From the NCBI GenBank assembly GCA_964577705.1, contig CAZOAD010000007.1:2621-66620 (forward strand): a stretch of 64,000 nt of DNA, written 5' to 3'. Both the position numbers and the translations under genes were made by a program. Positions 34,415-45,730 of the stretch are shown in pieces (within the stretch, counting starts at the first letter, position 1; every line of letters starts with the position of its first letter). Below the pieces are notes generated by a model. That model was not told the DNA's origin and ran no database searches. It was given only the letters and a program-made list of their open reading frames with translations. This stretch comes from an uncultured Mesohalobacter sp. GTDB taxonomy: Bacteria; Bacteroidota; Bacteroidia; Flavobacteriales; Flavobacteriaceae.

Positions 34415-34452
34415 AAAAAAGGACTTATCCAATTGGATAAGTCCTTTCTTTT
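34415..34452. terminator. Bidirectional terminator between the M28 peptidase and tRNA-His
   Basis: AAAGGACTTATCC-AATT-GGATAAGTCCTTT, a perfect inverted repeat with A/T tails. Confidence 0.8.
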
Positions 34453-34453
34453 G

Positions 34454-34528
34454 GGTGGAAGATGGGGCTCGAACCCACGACCCCTGGTACCACAAACCAG
34501 TGCTCTAACCAACTGAGCTACATCCACC
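34454..34528 (-). tRNA. tRNA-His(GUG); G-1 encoded, CCA not encoded
   Basis: Minus strand: G GTGGATG TAGCTCAGTTGGTTAGAGC A CTGGT TTGTGGT ACCAG GGGTC GTGGG TTCGAGC CCCAT CTTCCAC C. A -7 box TAAATTTG lies at 34556-34549. Confidence 0.96.
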
Positions 34529-34687: not shown

Positions 34688-37600
34688 TTATTCTTGATTC
34701 AAAAAAGGCTCAACTTTCTCTTTGATTTCTTCTACAATACTAGGATCCAATAAAGTTGATACATCTCCTATTTGACCTGCTTCACCAGAAGAAATTTTTC
34801 TCATAATTCTTCTCATAATTTTCCCGCTTCTTGTTTTTGGTAAACCAGAAACGAAGTGAATGCGATCTAACTTTGCAATTGGACCAATTTTACTAGAGAT
34901 CAGTTGATTGATTTCTTTGCTTAAGTTTTCTTTATTTCTGGATTCGCCATCATTTTTCAAAATCACAAAACCAGCTAAAGCATTTCCTTTTACATTATGG
35001 GGGAAACCAATAATAGCAGATTCAGCTACAGCTGGATGTTCATTGATCGCATCTTCAATAGGCGCTGTACCCAGATTATGTCCCGACACGATGATGACAT
35101 CATCTACCCTACCTGTAATTCTGTAGTAGCCCACCTCATCGCGAAGTGCTCCATCACCGGTAAAGTAAACATTTTTGAATGCAGAAAAGTAAGTATCCTT
35201 ATAGCGTTGATGATTTCCATAAACAGTCCTGGCCATACTGGGCCACGGATGCTTAATGCATAACCTTCCGGAAACCGAATTACCTTCAATTTCTTTTCCG
35301 TTTTCATCCATCAATGATGGCTGAATTCCGGGAAGTGGTAGTGTAGCATAAGTTGGCTTGGTTGGAGTCACGAAAGGTATTGGGGATATCATGATACCGC
35401 CCGTCTCCGTTTGCCACCAGGTGTCCACAATTGGGCATTTCTTCTTTCCAATATTTTCATTGTACCAGTTCCAAGCTTCCTCATTAATAGGCTCTCCAAC
35501 ACTTCCTAAAACTTTTAAAGAAGATAAATCATACGTATTGACAAATTCAATATCCTGTTTTGCAAGAGCTCGAATAGCTGTTGGAGCAGTATAAAACTGG
35601 TTAACTTTGTACTTGTCTACAATATCCCAAAACCTGCCATAATCTGGATAAGAGGGGACACCTTCAAACATCAATGTAGTTGCTCCATTGAGAAGAGGTC
35701 CGTAGACAATGTAGGAGTGTCCGGTAATCCAACCGATATCTGCTGTACACCAGTAGACATCATTTTCTTGATATTGAAATACATTTTTGAAAGAAAAAGC
35801 GGTATACACCATATATCCAGCGGTGGTATGAACCATACCTTTAGGTGTTCCAGTAGAACCGGAAGTATACAAAATGAAAAGCATGTCTTCCGCATCCATT
35901 ACTTCTGCCTCACATTTGTCATCGACTTGCTTTAATTCTTCATGTAACCAAAGGTCACGATTTTCAACCATTTCAATTTTTGAAAAAGTGCGTTTAGCCA
36001 CCAGCACACATTCTACTGAAGGTGTACTTTCCAAAGCTTCATCGACGATGCCTTTCAAATCAATGCTTTTGGATCCTCTGTAAGATCCATCTGAAGTAAT
36101 CACCATTTTACAGTCGGAGTCATTTATCCTTGAGGCTAAGGCTGAAGCTGAAAACCCGGCAAAAACGACAGAATGCACCGCTCCTGTCCTCGCACAAGCT
36201 AAGGTAGCAATCGCCAATTCTGGTATCATGGGTAGGTAAATGCAAACTCGATCTCCCTTCTGAATACCGTTTTTCTTCATCACATTTGCCATCTTATTCA
36301 CTCGCTTTGATAACTCAGCATAACTAATGTGAAGTGCTTCTTCGTCAGGATTATTGGGTTCCCAAATGATGGCTGTTTTATTGCCTCTTATATTCAAATG
36401 CCTGTCAATAGCATTTTCAGTGATGTTAAGTTGGGCGCCTTCAAACCAAGTTGCCTTGGCTTCTTCAGGATCCCATTTCAATACGGTATCCCATTTTTTT
36501 CTCCATTGAAAATTACGCTCTGCAATGGTGCTCCAGAAGTTTTCTGGGTCGTTTTGAGATATTCTATACACATCCATATACTTCGCCAGCGAATCGATGT
36601 TGTAGTAACTTTTGGTTAATGCCTTTAAAGATTGTGTCACCTGATTTTTATTGGTACTAAATGCCCCAATTTTTTGCTGACTGAAGGTTTCAATTATTTC
36701 ACTGATCACCATTGGATCTTCAATAGTTGACGGTAAACTATAAGGCTCGCCAGCTACAAGTTTTCTTAAGGTTCTTCGCAAAGTCTTACCACTTCGCGTT
36801 TTGGGGAGTCTTTTCACCATAACTACGTTTTTCAAGGCAGCAATGGGACCAATTTTATCTCTGACAAGTTGAATGATTTCAGTTTCCATTTTATAAGACT
36901 CGTAGTTTTCTTCGCCAGTTTTTGGAACTACGATGGCCAAGGGAACTTCACCTTTCAATTCATCATGAAGTCCAACTACAGCACATTCAGCAACAGAAGG
37001 GTGCTGAGACACCACTTCTTCTAAAGCTGCTGTAGAAAGCCTATGCCCGGAAACGTTGATCACATCATCTATTCTTCCTGTTATAAAAACGTAGCCCTCC
37101 TTATCGATATAACCGCCATCGCCAGAGAAGTAGTATCCTGGGAACTTACTCAAATAGCCGTTTTTATAACGTTCATGATTCTTCCATAGGGTTTGCATGA
37201 AACCAGGGGGCAGAGGTAATTTGGAACAAATGTAACCTTCAGTATTTGCTGGCAAAACCTCTCCATCTTCGGAGAGAACTTGAAGGTTATAGCCTGGGAC
37301 TGGTTTCCCTGCAGATCCTGGTATAACTGGTAAAGCATCCATACCCATGTAGTTAGCCACAATAGGCCAACCAGATTCTGTTTGCCACCAATGGTCAATA
37401 ACAGGAATTTTTAAATGTTTTTCTGCCCATTTCAAAGTAGTTTCATCACAACGCTCACCCGCTAAAAATTGATACTTAAGTGAAGAAATATCATACTTTT
37501 TGATAAACTTTCCTTCCGGATCTTCTTTTTTTATAGCTCTGAATGCAGTTGGAGCTGTGAACATTACATTTACTTTATGGTCTTCAATCACCCTCCAAAA

Positions 37601-38551
37601 GGCTCCAGCATCTGGTGTCTTTATGGGTTTGCCTTCATAGATAATCGTTGTATTTCTTTGTATCATTGGAGCATACACAATATAACTATGACCTACAACC
37701 CAACCCACATCGGATGCAGCCCAAAAGGTATCGCCAGGCTGAGTCCCATAGATATTTTTCATCGAATATTTGAGACCAACGGCATAGCCACCTGTATCTC
37801 TCACTACCCCTTTTGGAGATCCTGTTGTTCCTGAAGTATATAAGATATAAGACGGATCTTTGGATTTTAAAGGCACTGCATCTGCCGGTTTGGCTTTTTC
37901 AAGCAGTGATAAATAATCAATATCGTAAGGTTTTTGTTCAAATTCTACCCCCAGCTTTCTATTGAAAACTACCACTTTTTCAACCTTATGGATAGCCTTT
38001 TCAATAGCTTCATCCACCATAGACTTGTAAGCAATAAGTCTATCCACTTCAATTCCTGATGTAGCGGTAATGATGACTTTTGGTTTTGCATCATCAATTC
38101 TCATCGCCAATTCATCTGGTGCAAAGCCTCCAAAAACCACCGAATGTATGGCTCCTATTCTGGCACAGGCTAACATACTAAACAAGGAGTGAGAAATCAT
38201 CGGCATATAAATAATGACCCGGTCTCCTTTCTCTACACCCAGTTCCCTGAGTCCTCCTGCGAGTTTAGATACTTTTTCTAAAACCTCGTTATAGGTATAT
38301 TTCACCTGTTTTTGCCTTACCGCAGAGTCGTAGATAAGTGCCAATTCATCGCCGTACCCATCTTCTACATGTTGATCTATGCACAAGTAACTTAAGTTGG
38401 TTTCACCATCTGGGAACCAATGGTAAATACCTTCAGAAGTTTGCTCCATTGCTACAGTTGGTGCTTTAAACCACTTGATGTTCTTGGACTCTTGCATCCA
38501 AAATTCCTCTGGTTGTTCAATACTTTTTTGATAAGCTTCTTTATAATTCAT
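34688..38551 (-). CDS. acs: Tandem fusion of a PrpE-like propionyl-CoA synthetase (aa ~1-630) and acetyl-CoA synthetase Acs (aa ~645-1287)
   Basis: Two full motif sets: YTSGTTGSPKG / YTSGSTGTPKG, WVVGHSY / WITGHSY, DHWWQTESG / DTWWQTETGG, PKTRSGKT / PKTRSGKI. Single open frame. Confidence 0.92.
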   Translation of the reverse strand: MNYKEAYQKSIEQPEEFWMQESKNIKWFKAPTVAMEQTSEGIYHWFPDGETNLSYLCIDQHVEDGYGDELALIYDSAVRQKQVKYTYNEVLEKVSKLAGGLRELGVEKGDRVIIYMPMISHSLFSMLACARIGAIHSVVFGGFAPDELAMRIDDAKPKVIITATSGIEVDRLIAYKSMVDEAIEKAIHKVEKVVVFNRKLGVEFEQKPYDIDYLSLLEKAKPADAVPLKSKDPSYILYTSGTTGSPKGVVRDTGGYAVGLKYSMKNIYGTQPGDTFWAASDVGWVVGHSYIVYAPMIQRNTTIIYEGKPIKTPDAGAFWRVIEDHKVNVMFTAPTAFRAIKKEDPEGKFIKKYDISSLKYQFLAGERCDETTLKWAEKHLKIPVIDHWWQTESGWPIVANYMGMDALPVIPGSAGKPVPGYNLQVLSEDGEVLPANTEGYICSKLPLPPGFMQTLWKNHERYKNGYLSKFPGYYFSGDGGYIDKEGYVFITGRIDDVINVSGHRLSTAALEEVVSQHPSVAECAVVGLHDELKGEVPLAIVVPKTGEENYESYKMETEIIQLVRDKIGPIAALKNVVMVKRLPKTRSGKTLRRTLRKLVAGEPYSLPSTIEDPMVISEIIETFSQQKIGAFSTNKNQVTQSLKALTKSYYNIDSLAKYMDVYRISQNDPENFWSTIAERNFQWRKKWDTVLKWDPEEAKATWFEGAQLNITENAIDRHLNIRGNKTAIIWEPNNPDEEALHISYAELSKRVNKMANVMKKNGIQKGDRVCIYLPMIPELAIATLACARTGAVHSVVFAGFSASALASRINDSDCKMVITSDGSYRGSKSIDLKGIVDEALESTPSVECVLVAKRTFSKIEMVENRDLWLHEELKQVDDKCEAEVMDAEDMLFILYTSGSTGTPKGMVHTTAGYMVYTAFSFKNVFQYQENDVYWCTADIGWITGHSYIVYGPLLNGATTLMFEGVPSYPDYGRFWDIVDKYKVNQFYTAPTAIRALAKQDIEFVNTYDLSSLKVLGSVGEPINEEAWNWYNENIGKKKCPIVDTWWQTETGGIMISPIPFVTPTKPTYATLPLPGIQPSLMDENGKEIEGNSVSGRLCIKHPWPSMARTVYGNHQRYKDTYFSAFKNVYFTGDGALRDEVGYYRITGRVDDVIIVSGHNLGTAPIEDAINEHPAVAESAIIGFPHNVKGNALAGFVILKNDGESRNKENLSKEINQLISSKIGPIAKLDRIHFVSGLPKTRSGKIMRRIMRKISSGEAGQIGDVSTLLDPSIVEEIKEKVEPFLNQE

Positions 38552-38563
38552 AACTGTGTATTT

Positions 38564-38938
38564 TTAAGATTTTTGTATTATTAATTCACTTACAGTGCTA
38601 AGAAGTTTTTTCATAGAAAACGGTTTTTTGATGTAGGCTTTAGCACCGAGAGTCATGGCTTTATCTATATCGCTTTCTTTCTGTTTAGCACTTATTATAA
38701 CAGTTTGTGTTGTTTCCTTTAGAGTTTTATGCTGTTTCAGATGTTGTAAAACTTCGTAGCCATCCACTTTAGGCATCATGATGTCCAGAATGACCAAGTC
38801 AGGCTCCAGTTTTTCTGCAAGTGCAATCGCTTCTTCACCATCTCTAGCAATAAATACCTCATAACCATTTTTTCTCAACGTGTATTCTACAGCCATTATA
38901 ATATTAGGCTCATCATCTACAACTAGAATCTTTTTCAT
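38564..38938 (-). CDS. Stand-alone response-regulator receiver protein
   Basis: ILVVDDE, LDIMMP (phospho-Asp), IISA, YIKKPF; no output domain. Confidence 0.93.
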   Translation of the reverse strand: MKKILVVDDEPNIIMAVEYTLRKNGYEVFIARDGEEAIALAEKLEPDLVILDIMMPKVDGYEVLQHLKQHKTLKETTQTVIISAKQKESDIDKAMTLGAKAYIKKPFSMKKLLSTVSELIIQKS

Positions 38939-41631
38939 AGGTCTCGTTTTGGTAATTTAACAATCATTTCAGCACCAACACTTACATTGGATTCCGCATA
39001 TATTTCACCTTTATGCATCTCTACAATTTGTTTGCAAATCGCTAGTCCAAAACCACTTCCAATCGGTTTTTTAAAGGTTTGATTCTTGGATTGATAAAAC
39101 TTTTTGAAAATCAAATGAATATCTTCTTCTGGAATTCCCTTGCCATTATCCTTTATAATACATAAGATTTCTTCTGAATTTTCCTCCAGAAAGACTGTTA
39201 TGGTTCCGTTCTTATCTGGAACAAATTTTAATGCATTGGAGAGTAAATTAGTAAAAACTTGTAACATTTTACTATAATCAAATTCGATTCTAACACTGGG
39301 GTTAGAATTGAAACTCACCTCTATGTTTTTTCTTTCGGCTATGCTGCTAATCCCATGAATAGCATCTTCAATACAAGCATTCAAGCTTTGAGACTTCAAG
39401 GTCAATTCGTCTCTCCCAGATGCCATTTTTTCAAGATCTAGGATATCATTGATCAAAACATTTAAGCGTTCTGTATCTTGAATAATATTGCCTAAAAATT
39501 TCTGCTTTAGTTCCATCGGCATCTCCTCTCCTTCCGAAAGAACTTCCGAACTGGCTTTGATGGACGTAATTGGCGTTTTGAGTTCATGAGCCACCGTATC
39601 TAGAAAGTCATCTTTTAGCTGATCTTGAATTTTGAGCTCTTCATTGGCCAACTTCAGTTCTGAAGTCAGTTTGATTAATTTTTGAGATTGTTCTTCCAGT
39701 GACTTATTAACTGATATGGTTTCTCTGTTTTCTTCAAGAATTTTAAGGACTTCAACCAATGATACGGGCTTCTCTTTGGCCACATTAGAAATTAAAATTT
39801 TTGCAGAGGCGCTCCCCACTGCTCCAGTAAGTAAGCGTTCCGAAAAATTAATAAATCTCGCATCTGCAAGTTTATCCTCTGGATTTACGGCATAGCGTTT
39901 TCTAAAAACGCGCAAGGCTTTTTCTGCTTTCACTTGTCCAAGGAAACGAACCAATATATTTTGAATATCCTCAACGTAAGCTTCCCCTTTCCAGACGTAA
40001 GCATTTTCTTTAAGCTCAACAACCTTCTCTGTGTTTACAAACATTTCACCGTAATTACGCTCTCTGTAGTTTCCTTTTTTGATGACAGACAAAATTAGAT
40101 AAGCCCCGGTATTCAATAGTAAACTCCAGTACAAAGCATGGTTTACAGGATTTAAGAAATCTATACCAAAAAGCGTATAAGGTTTAAGCAGGCTATTTCC
40201 AAACAGTCCATTGGTTACAAACTGATTATTACTAAACACATTTTCAGTAAAAAATGGAAGTAAATACGTGAATACGATCATACACATTCCTAAACTAATC
40301 CCAACTTTAGAACCTAGAGCAGAGCCTCGATTCCAAAACATGCCAATGAAAAAACTTGGCGCTAATTGAGCGATAATCAAAAATGAAATGAGTCCAATCG
40401 AAAATAAAGACACCTCTGGATTGAATGACGCATAAAGTAAATAAGCCAGAATTATCGAACTAAAAACACTTACTCTCCTTATGTTTTTGATCGTTTTTTC
40501 ATTATTGAATGATTTTCTTTTAGTAAAGGTTTTGATAAATCCATAAGGGATGATAAGATTGTTACTGAGCATTGTAGAAAGCGCTACTGTAGAAACTACC
40601 ACCATAGAAATTACTGCTGAAAGACCTCCCAGAAAAACCATAACTGCTAGCCAATGATCGTTGAAATGCAAAGGAATAAGTAGAGTAAAATAATCTGCGT
40701 TGGCTTGCTCTCCCAGAATCAATAAGCCTCCCCAGGCTATAAAAATTACAAAGACGTTAAAGAGTAACAAATAAAGCGGGAATAGCCAAATTGAAGTTTT
40801 AAGCTGTTTTCGGTTACTGAATTCAACAACCGATGTTTGGAATTGGCGTGGTAATAAAAAAATGGCTAAAAATGAGAGTGCAATACTAAAATACCAGTTG
40901 ATTCCTCCACTTAATCCACTTAGTGTACTCAACTGCTTTACATCTAAACTGAGACTTGCCTGCTCATAAATATCTGAAGTGCCATCGAACACATAAAAAG
41001 TCACATAAATCCCCACTATGAGGAAAAAAGTCAGTTTCATGACAGATTCAGCTGCGACAGAAAACATCACTCCAGTTCTATTTTTGGAGGCATCTAAAGA
41101 TAGGGTCCCAAAAAATGAAGCAAATATTGCTAAAATCAAGGCAATGTAAAATGTGGAATCTGTAATTACAGAAGAACCTTCAATTCCTAAAGAGGAAGTA
41201 GTGACAATTTCAAATGTTTCAGAAATGGCTTTTAACTGAAGAGAGATATAAGGAATAATGCTGGCAGCACATACAATAGTAACTATTGCTCCAAGAGATC
41301 TACTGTTGCCATACCGAAGAGAAATAAAATCTGCTATGCTGGAAACATTGTAAACCTTAGACAATTGAATTATTTTTTTCAGTACAACAATCCATAGAGG
41401 AGCGGCTATAATTGGGCCTAAATAAATAGTAAGAAATTCTACTCCAGATTTTGCGGCCATACCAACGCTGCCATAATAGGTCCACGCTGAGCAATAGACA
41501 GCAAGCGAGAGTGCATAAACAGCTGGATGAGTCACCAGTTTTGATCCTTTATTTTTTTCAGCAAAAAAGGCGATGAGGAACAAAATTCCCAAGTAGATAA
41601 AAATGAGTGCTATAAGCCCAATTTTACTCAT
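38935..41631 (-). CDS. SLC5 (sodium:solute symporter)-STAC-histidine kinase, CrbS/CbrA-like
   Basis: YALSLAVYCSAWTYYGSVG, IADFISLRYG, PYISLQLKAI, FLLPRQF; STAC-like FSERLLTGAVGSASAKIL; HisKA AHELKTP; HATPase NLLSNALKF, DNGKG, GSGFGL. Confidence 0.92.
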   Translation of the reverse strand: MSKIGLIALIFIYLGILFLIAFFAEKNKGSKLVTHPAVYALSLAVYCSAWTYYGSVGMAAKSGVEFLTIYLGPIIAAPLWIVVLKKIIQLSKVYNVSSIADFISLRYGNSRSLGAIVTIVCAASIIPYISLQLKAISETFEIVTTSSLGIEGSSVITDSTFYIALILAIFASFFGTLSLDASKNRTGVMFSVAAESVMKLTFFLIVGIYVTFYVFDGTSDIYEQASLSLDVKQLSTLSGLSGGINWYFSIALSFLAIFLLPRQFQTSVVEFSNRKQLKTSIWLFPLYLLLFNVFVIFIAWGGLLILGEQANADYFTLLIPLHFNDHWLAVMVFLGGLSAVISMVVVSTVALSTMLSNNLIIPYGFIKTFTKRKSFNNEKTIKNIRRVSVFSSIILAYLLYASFNPEVSLFSIGLISFLIIAQLAPSFFIGMFWNRGSALGSKVGISLGMCMIVFTYLLPFFTENVFSNNQFVTNGLFGNSLLKPYTLFGIDFLNPVNHALYWSLLLNTGAYLILSVIKKGNYRERNYGEMFVNTEKVVELKENAYVWKGEAYVEDIQNILVRFLGQVKAEKALRVFRKRYAVNPEDKLADARFINFSERLLTGAVGSASAKILISNVAKEKPVSLVEVLKILEENRETISVNKSLEEQSQKLIKLTSELKLANEELKIQDQLKDDFLDTVAHELKTPITSIKASSEVLSEGEEMPMELKQKFLGNIIQDTERLNVLINDILDLEKMASGRDELTLKSQSLNACIEDAIHGISSIAERKNIEVSFNSNPSVRIEFDYSKMLQVFTNLLSNALKFVPDKNGTITVFLEENSEEILCIIKDNGKGIPEEDIHLIFKKFYQSKNQTFKKPIGSGFGLAICKQIVEMHKGEIYAESNVSVGAEMIVKLPKRDL

Positions 41632-41825
41632 TAATCTGAATATTTTTTAAGAATTAAAAAGGAAATACTTATGCCTAGCGCCCAAATGATGAAAATAAAG
41701 AAATATAACAACGGAAACCCCAGTACCGAAGAAACCTGGTTAAATGCAAAAATCAATGGTACATTGAACAACAAGATCAACCCAAAGCTCAAAAAAATAA
41801 GTTTTTGTTGATGTCTTTTTTTCAT
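41631..41825 (-). CDS. Small two-TM protein translationally coupled to the SLC5 kinase
   Basis: 64 aa, two hydrophobic helices (LFNVPL, LGFPLLYFFIF); TAATG stop/start overlap with the kinase. Confidence 0.75.
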   Translation of the reverse strand: MKKRHQQKLIFLSFGLILLFNVPLIFAFNQVSSVLGFPLLYFFIFIIWALGISISFLILKKYSD

Positions 41826-41911: not shown

Positions 41912-43702
41912 TTAATGCTCAGTAGCTTCTCCTGCTCCGCTTGGTATTCTTATGTTTTCAACAATCTCCTGAACGTCCTGAGGTGTTTCTTTGGTGAATT
42001 GGCAAACGATAAGTGAAACCACAAAGTTTACAATCATAGCAATAGACCCGAAACCTTCTGGAGAAACTCCAAACCACCAGTCTTTTTCAGTACCACCACC
42101 AAAGAGATCAAATTTGAATTTCAGCATATAGAATAACATCAAACATACCCCTACAATCATACCTGAAACAGCTCCTTCTCTGTTCATTTTTTTATAGAAT
42201 ATACCCAACACAATTGCTGGGAAAAACGAGGCAGCCGCGAGACCAAAAGCTAGCGCAACTACTGCCGCTACAAAACCTGGAGGGTTAATCCCGAAATAAC
42301 CGGCAATAACTACTGCTCCAGTTGCCGAAAGACGAGCAGCTATTAATTCTCCTTTATCGCTAATGCTTGGCTTTATTATTTTCTTGATCAAGTCATGTGA
42401 AACAGACGATGAAATCACTAAAAGCAATCCTGCAGCTGTAGAAAGCGCTGCAGCCAAACATCCAGCAGCTACCAGAGCAATTACCCAATTTGGTAATTCT
42501 GCAATTTCAGGATTAGCCATCACCATAATGTCATTGTCTACATAGAGTTCGTTAGCATTATCTGATGGATTAGTTACTATTCGCTCTCCACTATTTCCCA
42601 ATGTACCTTCGGCAAATTCAGGAGTTTTCCCATCAATTGCTTTACCCCCATTTTTATTTGGTCCTAAATATTGAATTTTACCATCATTGTTTTTATCGGC
42701 CCAGCCTATTAATCCTAAACTCTCCCAATTGGTAAACCACTCTGGTAATTCTTCATAAGGCTTTTCACTAACCGTATCGATCAGGTTAAGTTTTGAAAAA
42801 ACAGATACAGCAGGAGCGGTGATGTAAAGTATTGCGATAAACAGCAAGGCATAACCAGCAGATTTTCTTGCATCTTTTACTCTTTTCACTGTGAAAAATC
42901 TTACAATGACATGAGGGAGTCCTGCAGTTCCTACCATAAGTGCTAAAGTAATAGCTATAACATCAATCATACTTTTGGAGCCATCTGTATATTTATTAAA
43001 GCCTAACTCTTGACTTAGCCCATCTAACTTATCTAAAAGATATACATCTGGTTGGCTAACTACAGTATCTCCCATACCTAACATAGGGATTGGATTTCCA
43101 GTAAGTTGAATAGATATAAAAATAGCTGGAACCATAAAGGCAAAAATCAACACGCAGTACTGAGCCACCTGAGTATAAGTGATACCTTTCATTCCTCCTA
43201 AAACGGCATAAAAAAGAACAATCACCATCCCGATGTAAACTCCGGTATTAATTTCTACTTCCAAAAATCTTGAAAATACGACGCCTACCCCACGCATTTG
43301 ACCAGCTACATATGTAAAGGATACAATAAGCGCACAAAAAACGGCAACAATTCTAGCGGTCTTTGAGTAATATCGGTCACCAATAAAATCGGGAACTGTA
43401 AACTTTCCAAATTTTCTGAGGTAGGGCGCCAACAATAGAGCTAGAAGCACATAGCCACCAGTCCACCCCATCAGGTATGTAGCACCATCATAGCCCATAA
43501 AAGCTATAATACCTGCCATCGAAATGAAAGAGGCAGCAGACATCCAGTCTGCAGCAGTAGCCATTCCGTTAGCGATTGGACCAACGCCACCTCCTGCAAC
43601 ATAAAAATCCTTAGTAGATCCAGCACGAGACCAGATGGCAATTCCGATGTAAAGTGCAAATGAGGCACCTACAATAATATAAGTTAATAGTTGAGCATCC
43701 AT
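41912..43702 (-). CDS. Sodium:solute symporter, ActP-like (acetate/monocarboxylate permease)
   Basis: FYVAGGGV, NGMATAADWMSAASFISMAG, GGMKGITYTQVAQY, GTAGLPHVIVRFFT, AAALSTAAGLL. Confidence 0.92.
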   Translation of the reverse strand: MDAQLLTYIIVGASFALYIGIAIWSRAGSTKDFYVAGGGVGPIANGMATAADWMSAASFISMAGIIAFMGYDGATYLMGWTGGYVLLALLLAPYLRKFGKFTVPDFIGDRYYSKTARIVAVFCALIVSFTYVAGQMRGVGVVFSRFLEVEINTGVYIGMVIVLFYAVLGGMKGITYTQVAQYCVLIFAFMVPAIFISIQLTGNPIPMLGMGDTVVSQPDVYLLDKLDGLSQELGFNKYTDGSKSMIDVIAITLALMVGTAGLPHVIVRFFTVKRVKDARKSAGYALLFIAILYITAPAVSVFSKLNLIDTVSEKPYEELPEWFTNWESLGLIGWADKNNDGKIQYLGPNKNGGKAIDGKTPEFAEGTLGNSGERIVTNPSDNANELYVDNDIMVMANPEIAELPNWVIALVAAGCLAAALSTAAGLLLVISSSVSHDLIKKIIKPSISDKGELIAARLSATGAVVIAGYFGINPPGFVAAVVALAFGLAAASFFPAIVLGIFYKKMNREGAVSGMIVGVCLMLFYMLKFKFDLFGGGTEKDWWFGVSPEGFGSIAMIVNFVVSLIVCQFTKETPQDVQEIVENIRIPSGAGEATEH

Positions 43703-43714
43703 AGTTTTGGTTTT

Positions 43715-43975
43715 TTATTCGTCGTATCCGTATTTTTTATCCAGTTTATTCATCAATCTTACGTACACGAAAATGAGAATTACGAATACATAAATTGAAC
43801 CTTGTTGTGCGAACCAAAACCCGAGTTTAAATCCTCCCAAAGTAAATTGATCGAGCCAGTCCTTAAAAAGAATTCCTGCTCCATAAGAGACTGAAAACCA
43901 AATACTGAGGAGTATGTATAAATACCTCACATTTTCTTTCCAGTAGGCTACTGCGTTTTTGTCTTTGTTTTTCAT
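43715..43975 (-). CDS. DUF4212 small subunit of the solute symporter
   Basis: YWKEN, GFKLGFWFAQQGSIYVF, MNKLDKKY. Confidence 0.9.
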   Translation of the reverse strand: MKNKDKNAVAYWKENVRYLYILLSIWFSVSYGAGILFKDWLDQFTLGGFKLGFWFAQQGSIYVFVILIFVYVRLMNKLDKKYGYDE

Positions 43976-43986
43976 TGTTTTAAGAT

Positions 43987-45204
43987 TTATAGGTATATCA
44001 TTGCTTGCAAATTAATTCTATTGGTAGTTTGTCCTAAAAAACGCTCATTCTGAAATTCCAAGGTTAACTTTGAATTATGACCATTCAAATAGGCATTGAT
44101 ACCCAGTCCAAATATTGTTCTATCTTGATTGGAGGCATCTATAAAAGTATGGTTGTAAGATGTATAAGGCTGAATTCGAGTAGAGGAAATAGATTTTGGC
44201 AACAAATATCCAAGATGAGCGTACAGCATTTCTCCTGAAGAATAAGGTCCCAAAAGGTAATTAGTTCCGTAGTCATTGGACTGAAATACAGCATAACCCG
44301 TTAAAGAAGAACCATTACTCCCAACTGGCGTGTCGTAAAAAACATCGGCTGCAAAGAGATTTACATTTTCTCCTGTAGGTTGATCATTATCAAGTATAAC
44401 GGAGCCATTGGGGTGATGAAAAAAACCAGCACCAATATTAAATATGCGTTGTGTACCCAAATAAGTTCCCACCTTATAAGGAAGAAAATTACTTTCCAGG
44501 TTGAAAAAATTATAAGCGAAATATCCCGTATAAGTTTTACCAGCTTCGGCTGTACCAAGAAGATTGGCTCCTTGATATGTTGCACTAGTACTCGAAAGGG
44601 ATCTAGCATCGAGACTATTTATTAGGGCTTCGTTGATGGCAACATTATATTGAAGCTTTCCAAAATTACCTTTGGCAAAGATTCCAATATGTCTTGCAAA
44701 TTGATCTGTAAGTCCTAAAGTGGCCCAGGACGCTCGATTATTGTCCAAGGTCATCAAGTTAAGTGTACCTTGTGAATTTAATCTTGATAAACCATTCCAG
44801 TAATGCAGTCCACCACCTAAAACATGCTGTTCTGTTACATTATACTGTGCCCAGGCATCGTGCATAAAAACTTGAGGAGCACCATCTGCACCAACTGGAT
44901 CCATATTGGTAGCATTTAAACTGTTGATGCCAATGTGAGTTAAAACAAGAAAATCTTTAGTGATTTGACCATAAACCAGCAGCCTTGCTCTTCTTAATTG
45001 AAAAGAAACATCCGCTTGGTCTTCTGGTCGAGAATCCGAATAATTGGCCTGGGCTTGAACCCAGGTTAAAATTCTGATGTACTTATTATCGTTGTCTTCA
45101 AACTTTATTTTGAAGCCTCCTTTATAATAAGGTGACCCTTGAGAAAAAGCATTATTACTAGATAACGCGATAATTAATACTAAAAATGTAATATAATGTC
45201 TCAT
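43987..45204 (-). CDS. Outer-membrane porin-like protein
   Basis: Signal peptide; FQLRRARL, MHDAWAQY, GLHYWNGLSR, GHNSKLTLEFQ; beta-strand C-terminus. Confidence 0.7.
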   Translation of the reverse strand: MRHYITFLVLIIALSSNNAFSQGSPYYKGGFKIKFEDNDNKYIRILTWVQAQANYSDSRPEDQADVSFQLRRARLLVYGQITKDFLVLTHIGINSLNATNMDPVGADGAPQVFMHDAWAQYNVTEQHVLGGGLHYWNGLSRLNSQGTLNLMTLDNNRASWATLGLTDQFARHIGIFAKGNFGKLQYNVAINEALINSLDARSLSSTSATYQGANLLGTAEAGKTYTGYFAYNFFNLESNFLPYKVGTYLGTQRIFNIGAGFFHHPNGSVILDNDQPTGENVNLFAADVFYDTPVGSNGSSLTGYAVFQSNDYGTNYLLGPYSSGEMLYAHLGYLLPKSISSTRIQPYTSYNHTFIDASNQDRTIFGLGINAYLNGHNSKLTLEFQNERFLGQTTNRINLQAMIYL

Positions 45205-45316: not shown

Positions 45317-45730
45317 CTAATCTTTAAACCGTTCCCATTTGATGACCATAAATTTATCACCAAGTTCAGTAACAATCATTCCAGAACCTTTGGTATTTTC
45401 TGAAGAGGAAAAATACTGGCCAAGCTCACTCTGACTTAATATCTTGTAGGTGGGATGCATATCTGTATTTTCAACCTTCTGTATATTGTACTTCTTAACC
45501 CAGTTCATCACACTCACATGAGAAATCCCTAAAATCCGCTCGATTTCACGATAAGTTAAGCCTTCCAAATAAAGCTGCAAAGCTTTGGTTACATAGTATT
45601 GATCGATCTTCTTCCCCAGCTTATTCACTGTAAAAAAGTAATTACAAGATTTGCACTTGTAGCGTTGACGGTCGTTTACAATACCACTTTTAACAATTTT
45701 ATCTGATTGACATTGCGGACAAAATTTCAT
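45317..45730 (-). CDS. IS1 InsA-like Zn-ribbon + HTH protein with a unique C-terminus; no transposase core
   Basis: CPQCQSDKIVKSG...QRYKCKSC ribbon; ALQLYLEGLTYREIERILGISHVSVMNWVK HTH. Confidence 0.8.
   Translation of the reverse strand: MKFCPQCQSDKIVKSGIVNDRQRYKCKSCNYFFTVNKLGKKIDQYYVTKALQLYLEGLTYREIERILGISHVSVMNWVKKYNIQKVENTDMHPTYKILSQSELGQYFSSSENTKGSGMIVTELGDKFMVIKWERFKD

Follow-up and report, generated by a model that had tools for sequence, protein, structure and literature searches.

What does a bacterium gain from two CoA ligases in one chain when these enzymes are normally separate, and do the halves work on their own or on each other? The question is raised by a gene of an uncultured Mesohalobacter sp. 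(assembly GCA_964577705.1), which lies in a stretch of 64,000 nucleotides (nt) of contig CAZOAD010000007.1 (positions 2,621 to 66,620; hereafter the window). This is one real, conserved gene joining a half that resembles the propionate-CoA ligase PrpE to a half of the acetyl-CoA synthetase (Acs) type. We think that its product is probably a pair of tethered, independent CoA ligases. The gene and its parts, with lengths in amino acids (aa), are as follows.

34688..38551, minus strand: fused PrpE-like + Acs acyl-CoA synthetase, 1287 aa, conserved in the genus and beyond
36662..38551, minus strand: PrpE-like module, aa 1-630, pocket WVV/A364/W389, catalytic K589 at 36785-36787
36599..36661, minus strand: linker, aa ~631-651, predicted short helix of low confidence, start codon unconserved
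34688..36598, minus strand: Acs module, aa ~652-1287, pocket WIT/V1018/W1046, catalytic K1244 at 34820-34822

A single frame holds two complete ligases

The frame is stop-free over its 1287 aa (144.3 kDa), in a window with zero N, and matches each of the Pfam families AMP-binding, AMP-binding_C and ACAS_N twice. This agrees with a preliminary description of the DNA, which had read it as one uninterrupted frame with two full adenylation enzymes. The motifs that it had named are present in both halves: the P-loops YTSGTTGSPKG (238-248) and YTSGSTGTPKG (895-905), the sets WVVGHSY/FLAGE/DHWWQTES in the N half and WITGHSY/GSVGE/DTWWQTET in the C half, and an intact PKTRSGK in each, with the A10 lysines K589 and K1244. 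The two halves share 38.6% protein identity and a single common DNA stretch of 41 nt, which rules out a duplicated contig. One contig of run X3 covers 36484-36765, linker included, with 0 differences and 0 gaps, so that the coverage called for at the junction is there, although as non-independent support, since X3 may be the source sample.

The linker had been described as having no Met where Acs would start. This holds in part: the linker of the window's gene contains a GTG (V638) and an ATG (M659), but neither is conserved. We rejected a conserved internal start, as start codons are not kept across fused loci; in 7 of the 29 inspected, the 38 codons around the junction are free of ATG, GTG and TTG. 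Four database records (P0166, P0168, P0154 and P0125) give the Acs half only, starting inside the linker. The contig of P0168 has the same size as that of the full-length P0167, which suggests annotation truncation.

The halves resemble PrpE and Acs

The C half alone passes the AcsA model TIGR02188 (956.9 against a cut-off of 724.95) and keeps the P-loop, A5, the A7 Asp, the A8 Arg/Gly and the A10 Lys. In Acs structures the acyl pocket is lined by the WIT motif, a Val and a capping Trp (PMC8383264), the last of which limits chain length (PMC10455477). The acetate-sized pocket residues are present in the C half as W941, I942 and T943, V1018 and the capping W1046. It aligns over its full length with Salmonella enterica Acs (1PG4/2P2F; TIGR02188; ~730 bits) and keeps the equivalents of WIT, V386, W414, R191 and K609. 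It differs from that enzyme in being the second part of a 1287-aa chain and in two of its CoA-step arginines: R825 is kept at the position of R191, whereas N1159 stands at R526 and a Ser near R584. Most free flavobacterial Acs share these replacements. Because the Asn is also found in 81 of 97 free homologues, it is a lineage trait and not damage. The Arg lost at this position matters for catalysis in an archaeal model enzyme, so the lineage may lock the thioester conformation differently. Flavobacterial Acs reads GHNLGTAPIE where Salmonella has GHRLGTAEIE (N1159 and P1164 in the C half).

For the N half, the best solved relative is PrpE of D. shibae, 5GXD (757 bits, against 468 for Salmonella Acs), with a root-mean-square deviation of 1.5 Å over 577 columns at 54% identity. 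The two have the WVVGHSY/LAGE/DHWWQTE motifs in common, and the N half has intact catalytic motifs and a pocket enlarged as in 5GXD. Ala in place of Val widens the acyl pocket for propionate. The two pockets, W-V-V/A364/W389 in the N half and W-I-T/V1018/W1046 in the C half, are near-invariant in 68 intact fusions. The 5GXD enzyme is named a propionate-CoA ligase and made acryloyl-CoA in vitro (PMC5651017). The earlier assignment of a PrpE-like half and an Acs-type half is thus upheld by the best match of the one and the cut-off passed by the other.

The fusion recurs in Flavobacteriales

Among 41 genomes of the genus, 22 carry the full fused frame, and in 5 more the contig is broken or gapped but holds the fused junction; the other 14 have separate adjacent genes (3), acs alone (9) or no match (2). 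A fixed 1:1 stoichiometry had been suggested for the two activities. Both modules do lie in one chain, but the arrangement is dispensable, since 12 of the 41 genomes have separate genes or acs alone.

A search with the junction gave a list of 120 proteins, the top 83 of which covered at least 97% of the query; the source names of the matches include Psychroflexus, Brumimicrobium, Weeksellaceae, Lutibacter, Capnocytophaga and Apibacter. Without one partial record and two duplications, and with the window's protein added, this makes 81 fused proteins across Flavobacteriales: 68 have both halves intact, 7 a degenerate N half and 6 a degenerate C half. The duplications (P0074 and P0084) were dropped as likely artefacts, their halves being 96-97% identical internally, and alignment A1 excludes P0080 (partial) and P0086. 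Fused homologues thus recur, most of them with the motifs of both active sites.

Outside the genus the fusion is rare, with 3 of 301 genomes in a family sample and 5 of 401 in an order sample, the window's own included; family f7 has it in 14 of 251 genomes. In these large searches only two candidates were scored per genome, and inspection of six full-length family-sample matches left three true fusions. A metagenome scan with P0073 returned zero fused frames. Databases label the protein just 'acetate--CoA ligase', and we found no paper on the fusion in searches of the open literature, in line with the preliminary description, which knew of no characterized example. The fusion of two known enzyme types is apparently undescribed.

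Other ligase architectures appeared in the junction search. Many of P0089-P0121 are ligases of 780-860 aa that match half of the query and carry a DUF559/very-short-patch endonuclease-like domain (PF04480/PF18741; DUF, domain of unknown function), and P0095 has an added NUDIX domain.

Selection, origin and loss of the fusion

Both halves are under strong purifying selection. Among the six closest relatives, where computable, the ratio of nonsynonymous to synonymous substitution rates (dN/dS) is 0.024-0.038 for the N half and 0.023-0.034 for the C half; these ratios are rough, as dS is near saturation (dN 0.04-0.07, dS 1.5-2.4). The linker has a dN of 0.06-0.07 and a dS above 1.3 among close relatives.

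The fused gene occupies the site where relatives keep prpE and acs as neighboring but separate genes. In 35 loci acs comes immediately after prpE, at a spacing of -8 to 266 nt; the share of in-frame pairs among them is biased, because many were retrieved for being in frame. Trees place the fused proteins in two groups with different linkers, Psychroflexus-like and Lutibacter-like, and the free flavobacterial prpE-acs pairs form a group nested among the fused lineages. On quick trees of 26-39 chosen rows, a single fused clade was rejected for the Acs half (approximately unbiased test, p 0.008; p 0.006 with a mixture model), was borderline for both halves together (p 0.049) and was not rejected for the PrpE half (p 0.29). 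Together with the nested free pairs, these tests point either to two or more fusions or to one old fusion that was later re-split. In two genomes (G006, locus L021; G008, locus L022) the upstream sensing and uptake cluster is gone together with the PrpE half; their Acs, nested inside the fused clade, has a new N-terminus that retains linker-like sequence.

Relatives retain degenerate halves

Three genomes of the Apibacter-type genus g360 (G776, G820 and G804) carry two full-length copies each. The first copy has an N half without the A7 Asp, A8 Arg and A10 Lys and an intact Acs half. In the second copy the PrpE-like half is intact, and the Acs half has an altered P-loop, capping Trp and G524-equivalent; as this half keeps its Lys, we class it as degenerate rather than dead. 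G765 and G735 carry the first copy only, and the fused proteins of Capnocytophaga lost N-half catalysis separately. Since the copies of three genomes are mirror images, the halves are not redundant and two intact halves probably have distinct functions. Degenerate halves show a dN/dS of ~0.07-0.09, against 0.02-0.06 for their intact partners, in the least saturated pairs. There are hints in these sequences that a retained degenerate half may have a non-catalytic, structural or regulatory role.

P0040, a fusion of the Weeksellaceae clade, shows early decay of its N half, with the catalytic Lys changed to Glu and a P-loop change; it is possibly a fourth independent loss.

Predicted structure

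AlphaFold2 models of residues 52-1251 and of the N-degenerate paralogue both reached a mean predicted local distance difference test (pLDDT) of 84, with predicted template modeling scores (pTM) of 0.51 and 0.52; the linker of the former fell below 50. Both halves are thus predicted to fold with their mutual orientation unfixed, which is weak evidence either way on whether they are coupled. The 50 Foldseek matches listed are all single-module chains, each covering less than half of the model. K657, where the Acs module begins, is present in both fused clades at a frequency of at least 90%, against 1% of free Acs, and 11 fused-specific positions were found, several of them likely buried.

Gene neighborhood and host metabolism

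The fused gene is the last of a co-oriented cluster, whose other members, all on the minus strand, are listed from the nearest outward (HTH, helix-turn-helix).

38564..38938, minus strand: stand-alone receiver protein, 124 aa, conserved upstream of prpE/acs
38935..41631, minus strand: SLC5-histidine kinase of CrbS/CbrA-like architecture, 898 aa (profile match, Pfam, synteny)
41631..41825, minus strand: possible hydrophobic membrane micro-protein, 64 aa (open reading frame only), between symporter and kinase, its stop abutting the kinase start
41912..43702, minus strand: VC_2705-family sodium/solute symporter, ActP/MctC-related (TIGR03648, above cut-off)
43715..43975, minus strand: DUF4212 small symporter subunit (profile/Pfam match)
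43987..45204, minus strand: porin-like outer-membrane protein (weak ExtI match below cut-off; locus synteny)
45317..45730, minus strand: Zn-ribbon/HTH protein, 137 aa, like the IS1 N-terminus; heads 10 of the 18 mapped loci, at 65-89% identity

In 12 of the 18 mapped loci the kinase and receiver come before the ligase genes, whether these are fused or not, and the remaining 6 are degenerate copies located elsewhere. From its sequence and place, the Zn-ribbon/HTH protein may be the DNA-binding regulator of the locus. A sigma-70 promoter scan gave chance level, with a consensus unsuited to this bacterial group. Directly downstream of the fusion lies tRNA-His (34453-34527, minus strand), and a 13-pair hairpin past it (34418-34447) could terminate both convergent units.

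The fused gene is the only Acs/PrpE-type gene found in the host genome (G000, 96% complete). Searches of it for acetate kinase, PrpD and isocitrate lyase found none of the three; methylmalonyl-CoA mutase and carboxyltransferase genes are present. The two acylation switches put forward in the preliminary description are putative: the genome has a Sir2-type deacetylase, but a search for PF13607, the one acetyltransferase type searched for, gave a single weak hit, in a frame of 303 aa that falls short of the size of a PatZ-type acetyltransferase. Across relatives, isocitrate lyase occurs in 1 of 22 intact-fusion, 19 of 29 separate-adjacent, 4 of 7 degenerate-copy and 0 of 5 acs-only Psychroflexus genomes. 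Counted by genus this is 1 of 6 fused against 11 of 17 separate (p 0.07, with kin non-independent), and the association tracks genus, as unfused members of g1 and g352 are likewise without the enzyme. Because unfused Psychroflexus lack it too, and given this kinship, the link to the fusion is a hint only. In bacteria that lack a glyoxylate shunt, propionate could be a source of C4 units, which acetate cannot be.

A probable pair of tethered ligases and the alternatives

If the protein is, as we favor, two independent ligases on one tether, the first half would activate propionate, possibly also acrylate, while acetate would be the substrate of the second. Both would form an acyl-AMP, swing their small domain by ~140 degrees and transfer the acyl group to CoA, a movement described for Acs between its half-reactions (PMC8383264, PMC10455477), and the loose linker of ~20 residues would allow the small domain of the first half to move. 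Acetyl-CoA would mainly be oxidized, and propionyl-CoA would replenish succinyl-CoA through methylmalonyl-CoA; we propose these fates because mutase and carboxyltransferase genes are present and none of acetate kinase, PrpD and isocitrate lyase was found. The fusion would fix a 1:1 supply of both activities, which is optional, since relatives lack the fusion, lost a half or may have re-split. The substrates, the independence of the two sites and this physiology are what we infer from these lines of evidence.

Several observations weigh against this picture. Degenerate halves kept at full length under purifying selection are poorly explained by pure independence, and the low pTM, obtained from a 68-sequence alignment, is compatible with an interface. 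Scored alone, the N half finds its best matches in the PrpE models (TIGR02316/NF007815), yet it does not reach their cut-offs (689 against 827 and 748 against 955), and is hence PrpE-like rather than proven PrpE. The genes not found in the host may be unassembled, its genome being 96% complete, and in the RNA contigs of run X4, a small share, the linker is uncovered.

The reason why the link persists is a separate matter. The fusion may be a neutral accident of adjacent co-regulated genes, in which the enzymes work as before and the link brings no benefit, being kept only because to separate the genes again would take a stop codon as well as a new start. This account, compatible with the chemistry of two independent ligases and different solely in why the link persists, is plausible, if less likely than not. 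It fits the close spacing of the 35 separate pairs, several in frame with a short gap, the patchy fused state (3 of 301 and 5 of 401 genomes), the free pairs nested among fused lineages and a linker that is the most variable part. It fits less well with a fusion that has lasted over divergence down to ~52% identity, with the low linker dN in close relatives (0.06-0.07 against a dS above 1.3), and with the isocitrate lyase counts of 1/22 against 19/29 genomes, even if by genus these are just 1/6 against 11/17 (p 0.07). It is highly improbable that the frame arose as an artefact of assembly or sequencing, or that it makes two proteins through an internal start. Records of a 644-661-aa Acs half beginning in the linker, the GTG at V638 and the artefact-like P0074 and P0084, with their 96-97% self-identity, would suit this; full fused frames in 22 of 41 genus genomes, including two assembled as a single contig, and in records of named isolates, together with the linker-spanning contig identical to the window and the unconserved start codon, speak against this.

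Two further explanations concern what the halves do, and we consider each of them unlikely. The halves might be coupled, one module stabilizing the other or tuning it allosterically, for instance as a sensor of its acyl-CoA, CoA or AMP. This would account for degenerate halves that stay full length in three separate groups (Capnocytophaga N, Apibacter-type N and Apibacter-type C), are constrained at a dN/dS of ~0.07-0.09 and, in the modeled N-degenerate paralogue, are predicted to fold; the enrichment of K657 (at least 90% against 1%) points the same way, and there is a precedent in DIP2, whose ANL didomain is required with a degenerate second half (PMC9342972). On the other side stand the unfixed orientation in both models (pTM 0.51 and 0.52), the mere count of 11 fused-specific positions, several likely buried and equally explained by shared ancestry, and the survival of the Acs half alone in G006 and G008 after deletion of the PrpE half. 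Alternatively, the first half might prefer acrylate, 3-hydroxypropionate, isobutyrate or methylmercaptopropionate, or merely duplicate acetate activation. Its scores under the PrpE cut-offs agree with this, as does its closest solved relative, titled an acryloyl-CoA enzyme and producing acryloyl-CoA in vitro (PMC5651017). However, PrpE models still score best, the capping Trp is kept, methylmalonyl-CoA pathway genes exist in the genome, and the reciprocal retention of halves speaks against simple redundancy with Acs.

Relation to known systems

The N half differs from the PrpE family (TIGR02316/NF007815) in its sub-threshold scores and in being fused to Acs, and from PrpE enzymes that work with the methylcitrate cycle in its host, where PrpD was not found in a 96% complete genome and the mutase is present. 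The cluster recalls the CrbS/CrbR (MxtR/ErdR) acetate/propionate regulon of Vibrio and Pseudomonas, in which an SLC5-kinase, a symporter and acs also come together: CrbS/CrbR activates acs and actP (PMC5715377), and the regulator also binds upstream of prpE in P. alloputida (bioRxiv 10.64898/2026.09.07.749794). Unlike in that regulon, all genes here form one co-oriented cluster with prpE and acs fused, and the regulator next to the kinase, to which the search in this genome was confined, is a bare 124-aa receiver without a DNA-binding domain.

Two ANL-superfamily modules per chain are also found in DIP2/Cmr2 of opisthokonts, which offers an analogy for the relatives with a dead half. DIP2 differs in being a eukaryotic duplication of a domain resembling fatty acyl-AMP ligase (FAAL) with a degenerate second half and a role in diacylglycerol metabolism, whereas two different intact CoA ligases are joined here. 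There is also a weak match to 6EQO (1850 aa), propionyl-CoA synthase (Pcs), an Acs-type ligase within a larger fusion that makes propionyl-CoA. Pcs fuses consecutive steps, namely a ligase, a dehydratase and a reductase. Fusions usually join such consecutive pathway steps; unlike Pcs, the protein described here joins two parallel ligases competing for ATP and CoA.

Because of the database name 'acetate--CoA ligase', metabolic models of Psychroflexus, Lutibacter and others overlook the second activity. The fusion is of modest importance if its halves are simply independent. If they are coupled, it would set the ratio of acetyl-CoA to propionyl-CoA. A bolder and doubtful proposal is that coupled propionate and acetate modules balance acetyl-CoA against anaplerotic propionyl-CoA in bacteria without a glyoxylate shunt, that either module can become a retained pseudo-enzyme regulator of its partner, seemingly at least three times, and that the separate prpE-acs pair of most flavobacteria descends from a re-split fusion. 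Whichever holds, the family offers a complete natural series, with the two enzymes separate, fused, reduced by deletion of a half, or duplicated with mirror-image degenerate halves. This series makes the origin of pseudo-enzymes and the cross-regulation of ANL modules directly testable, and the same question applies to the eukaryotic DIP2.

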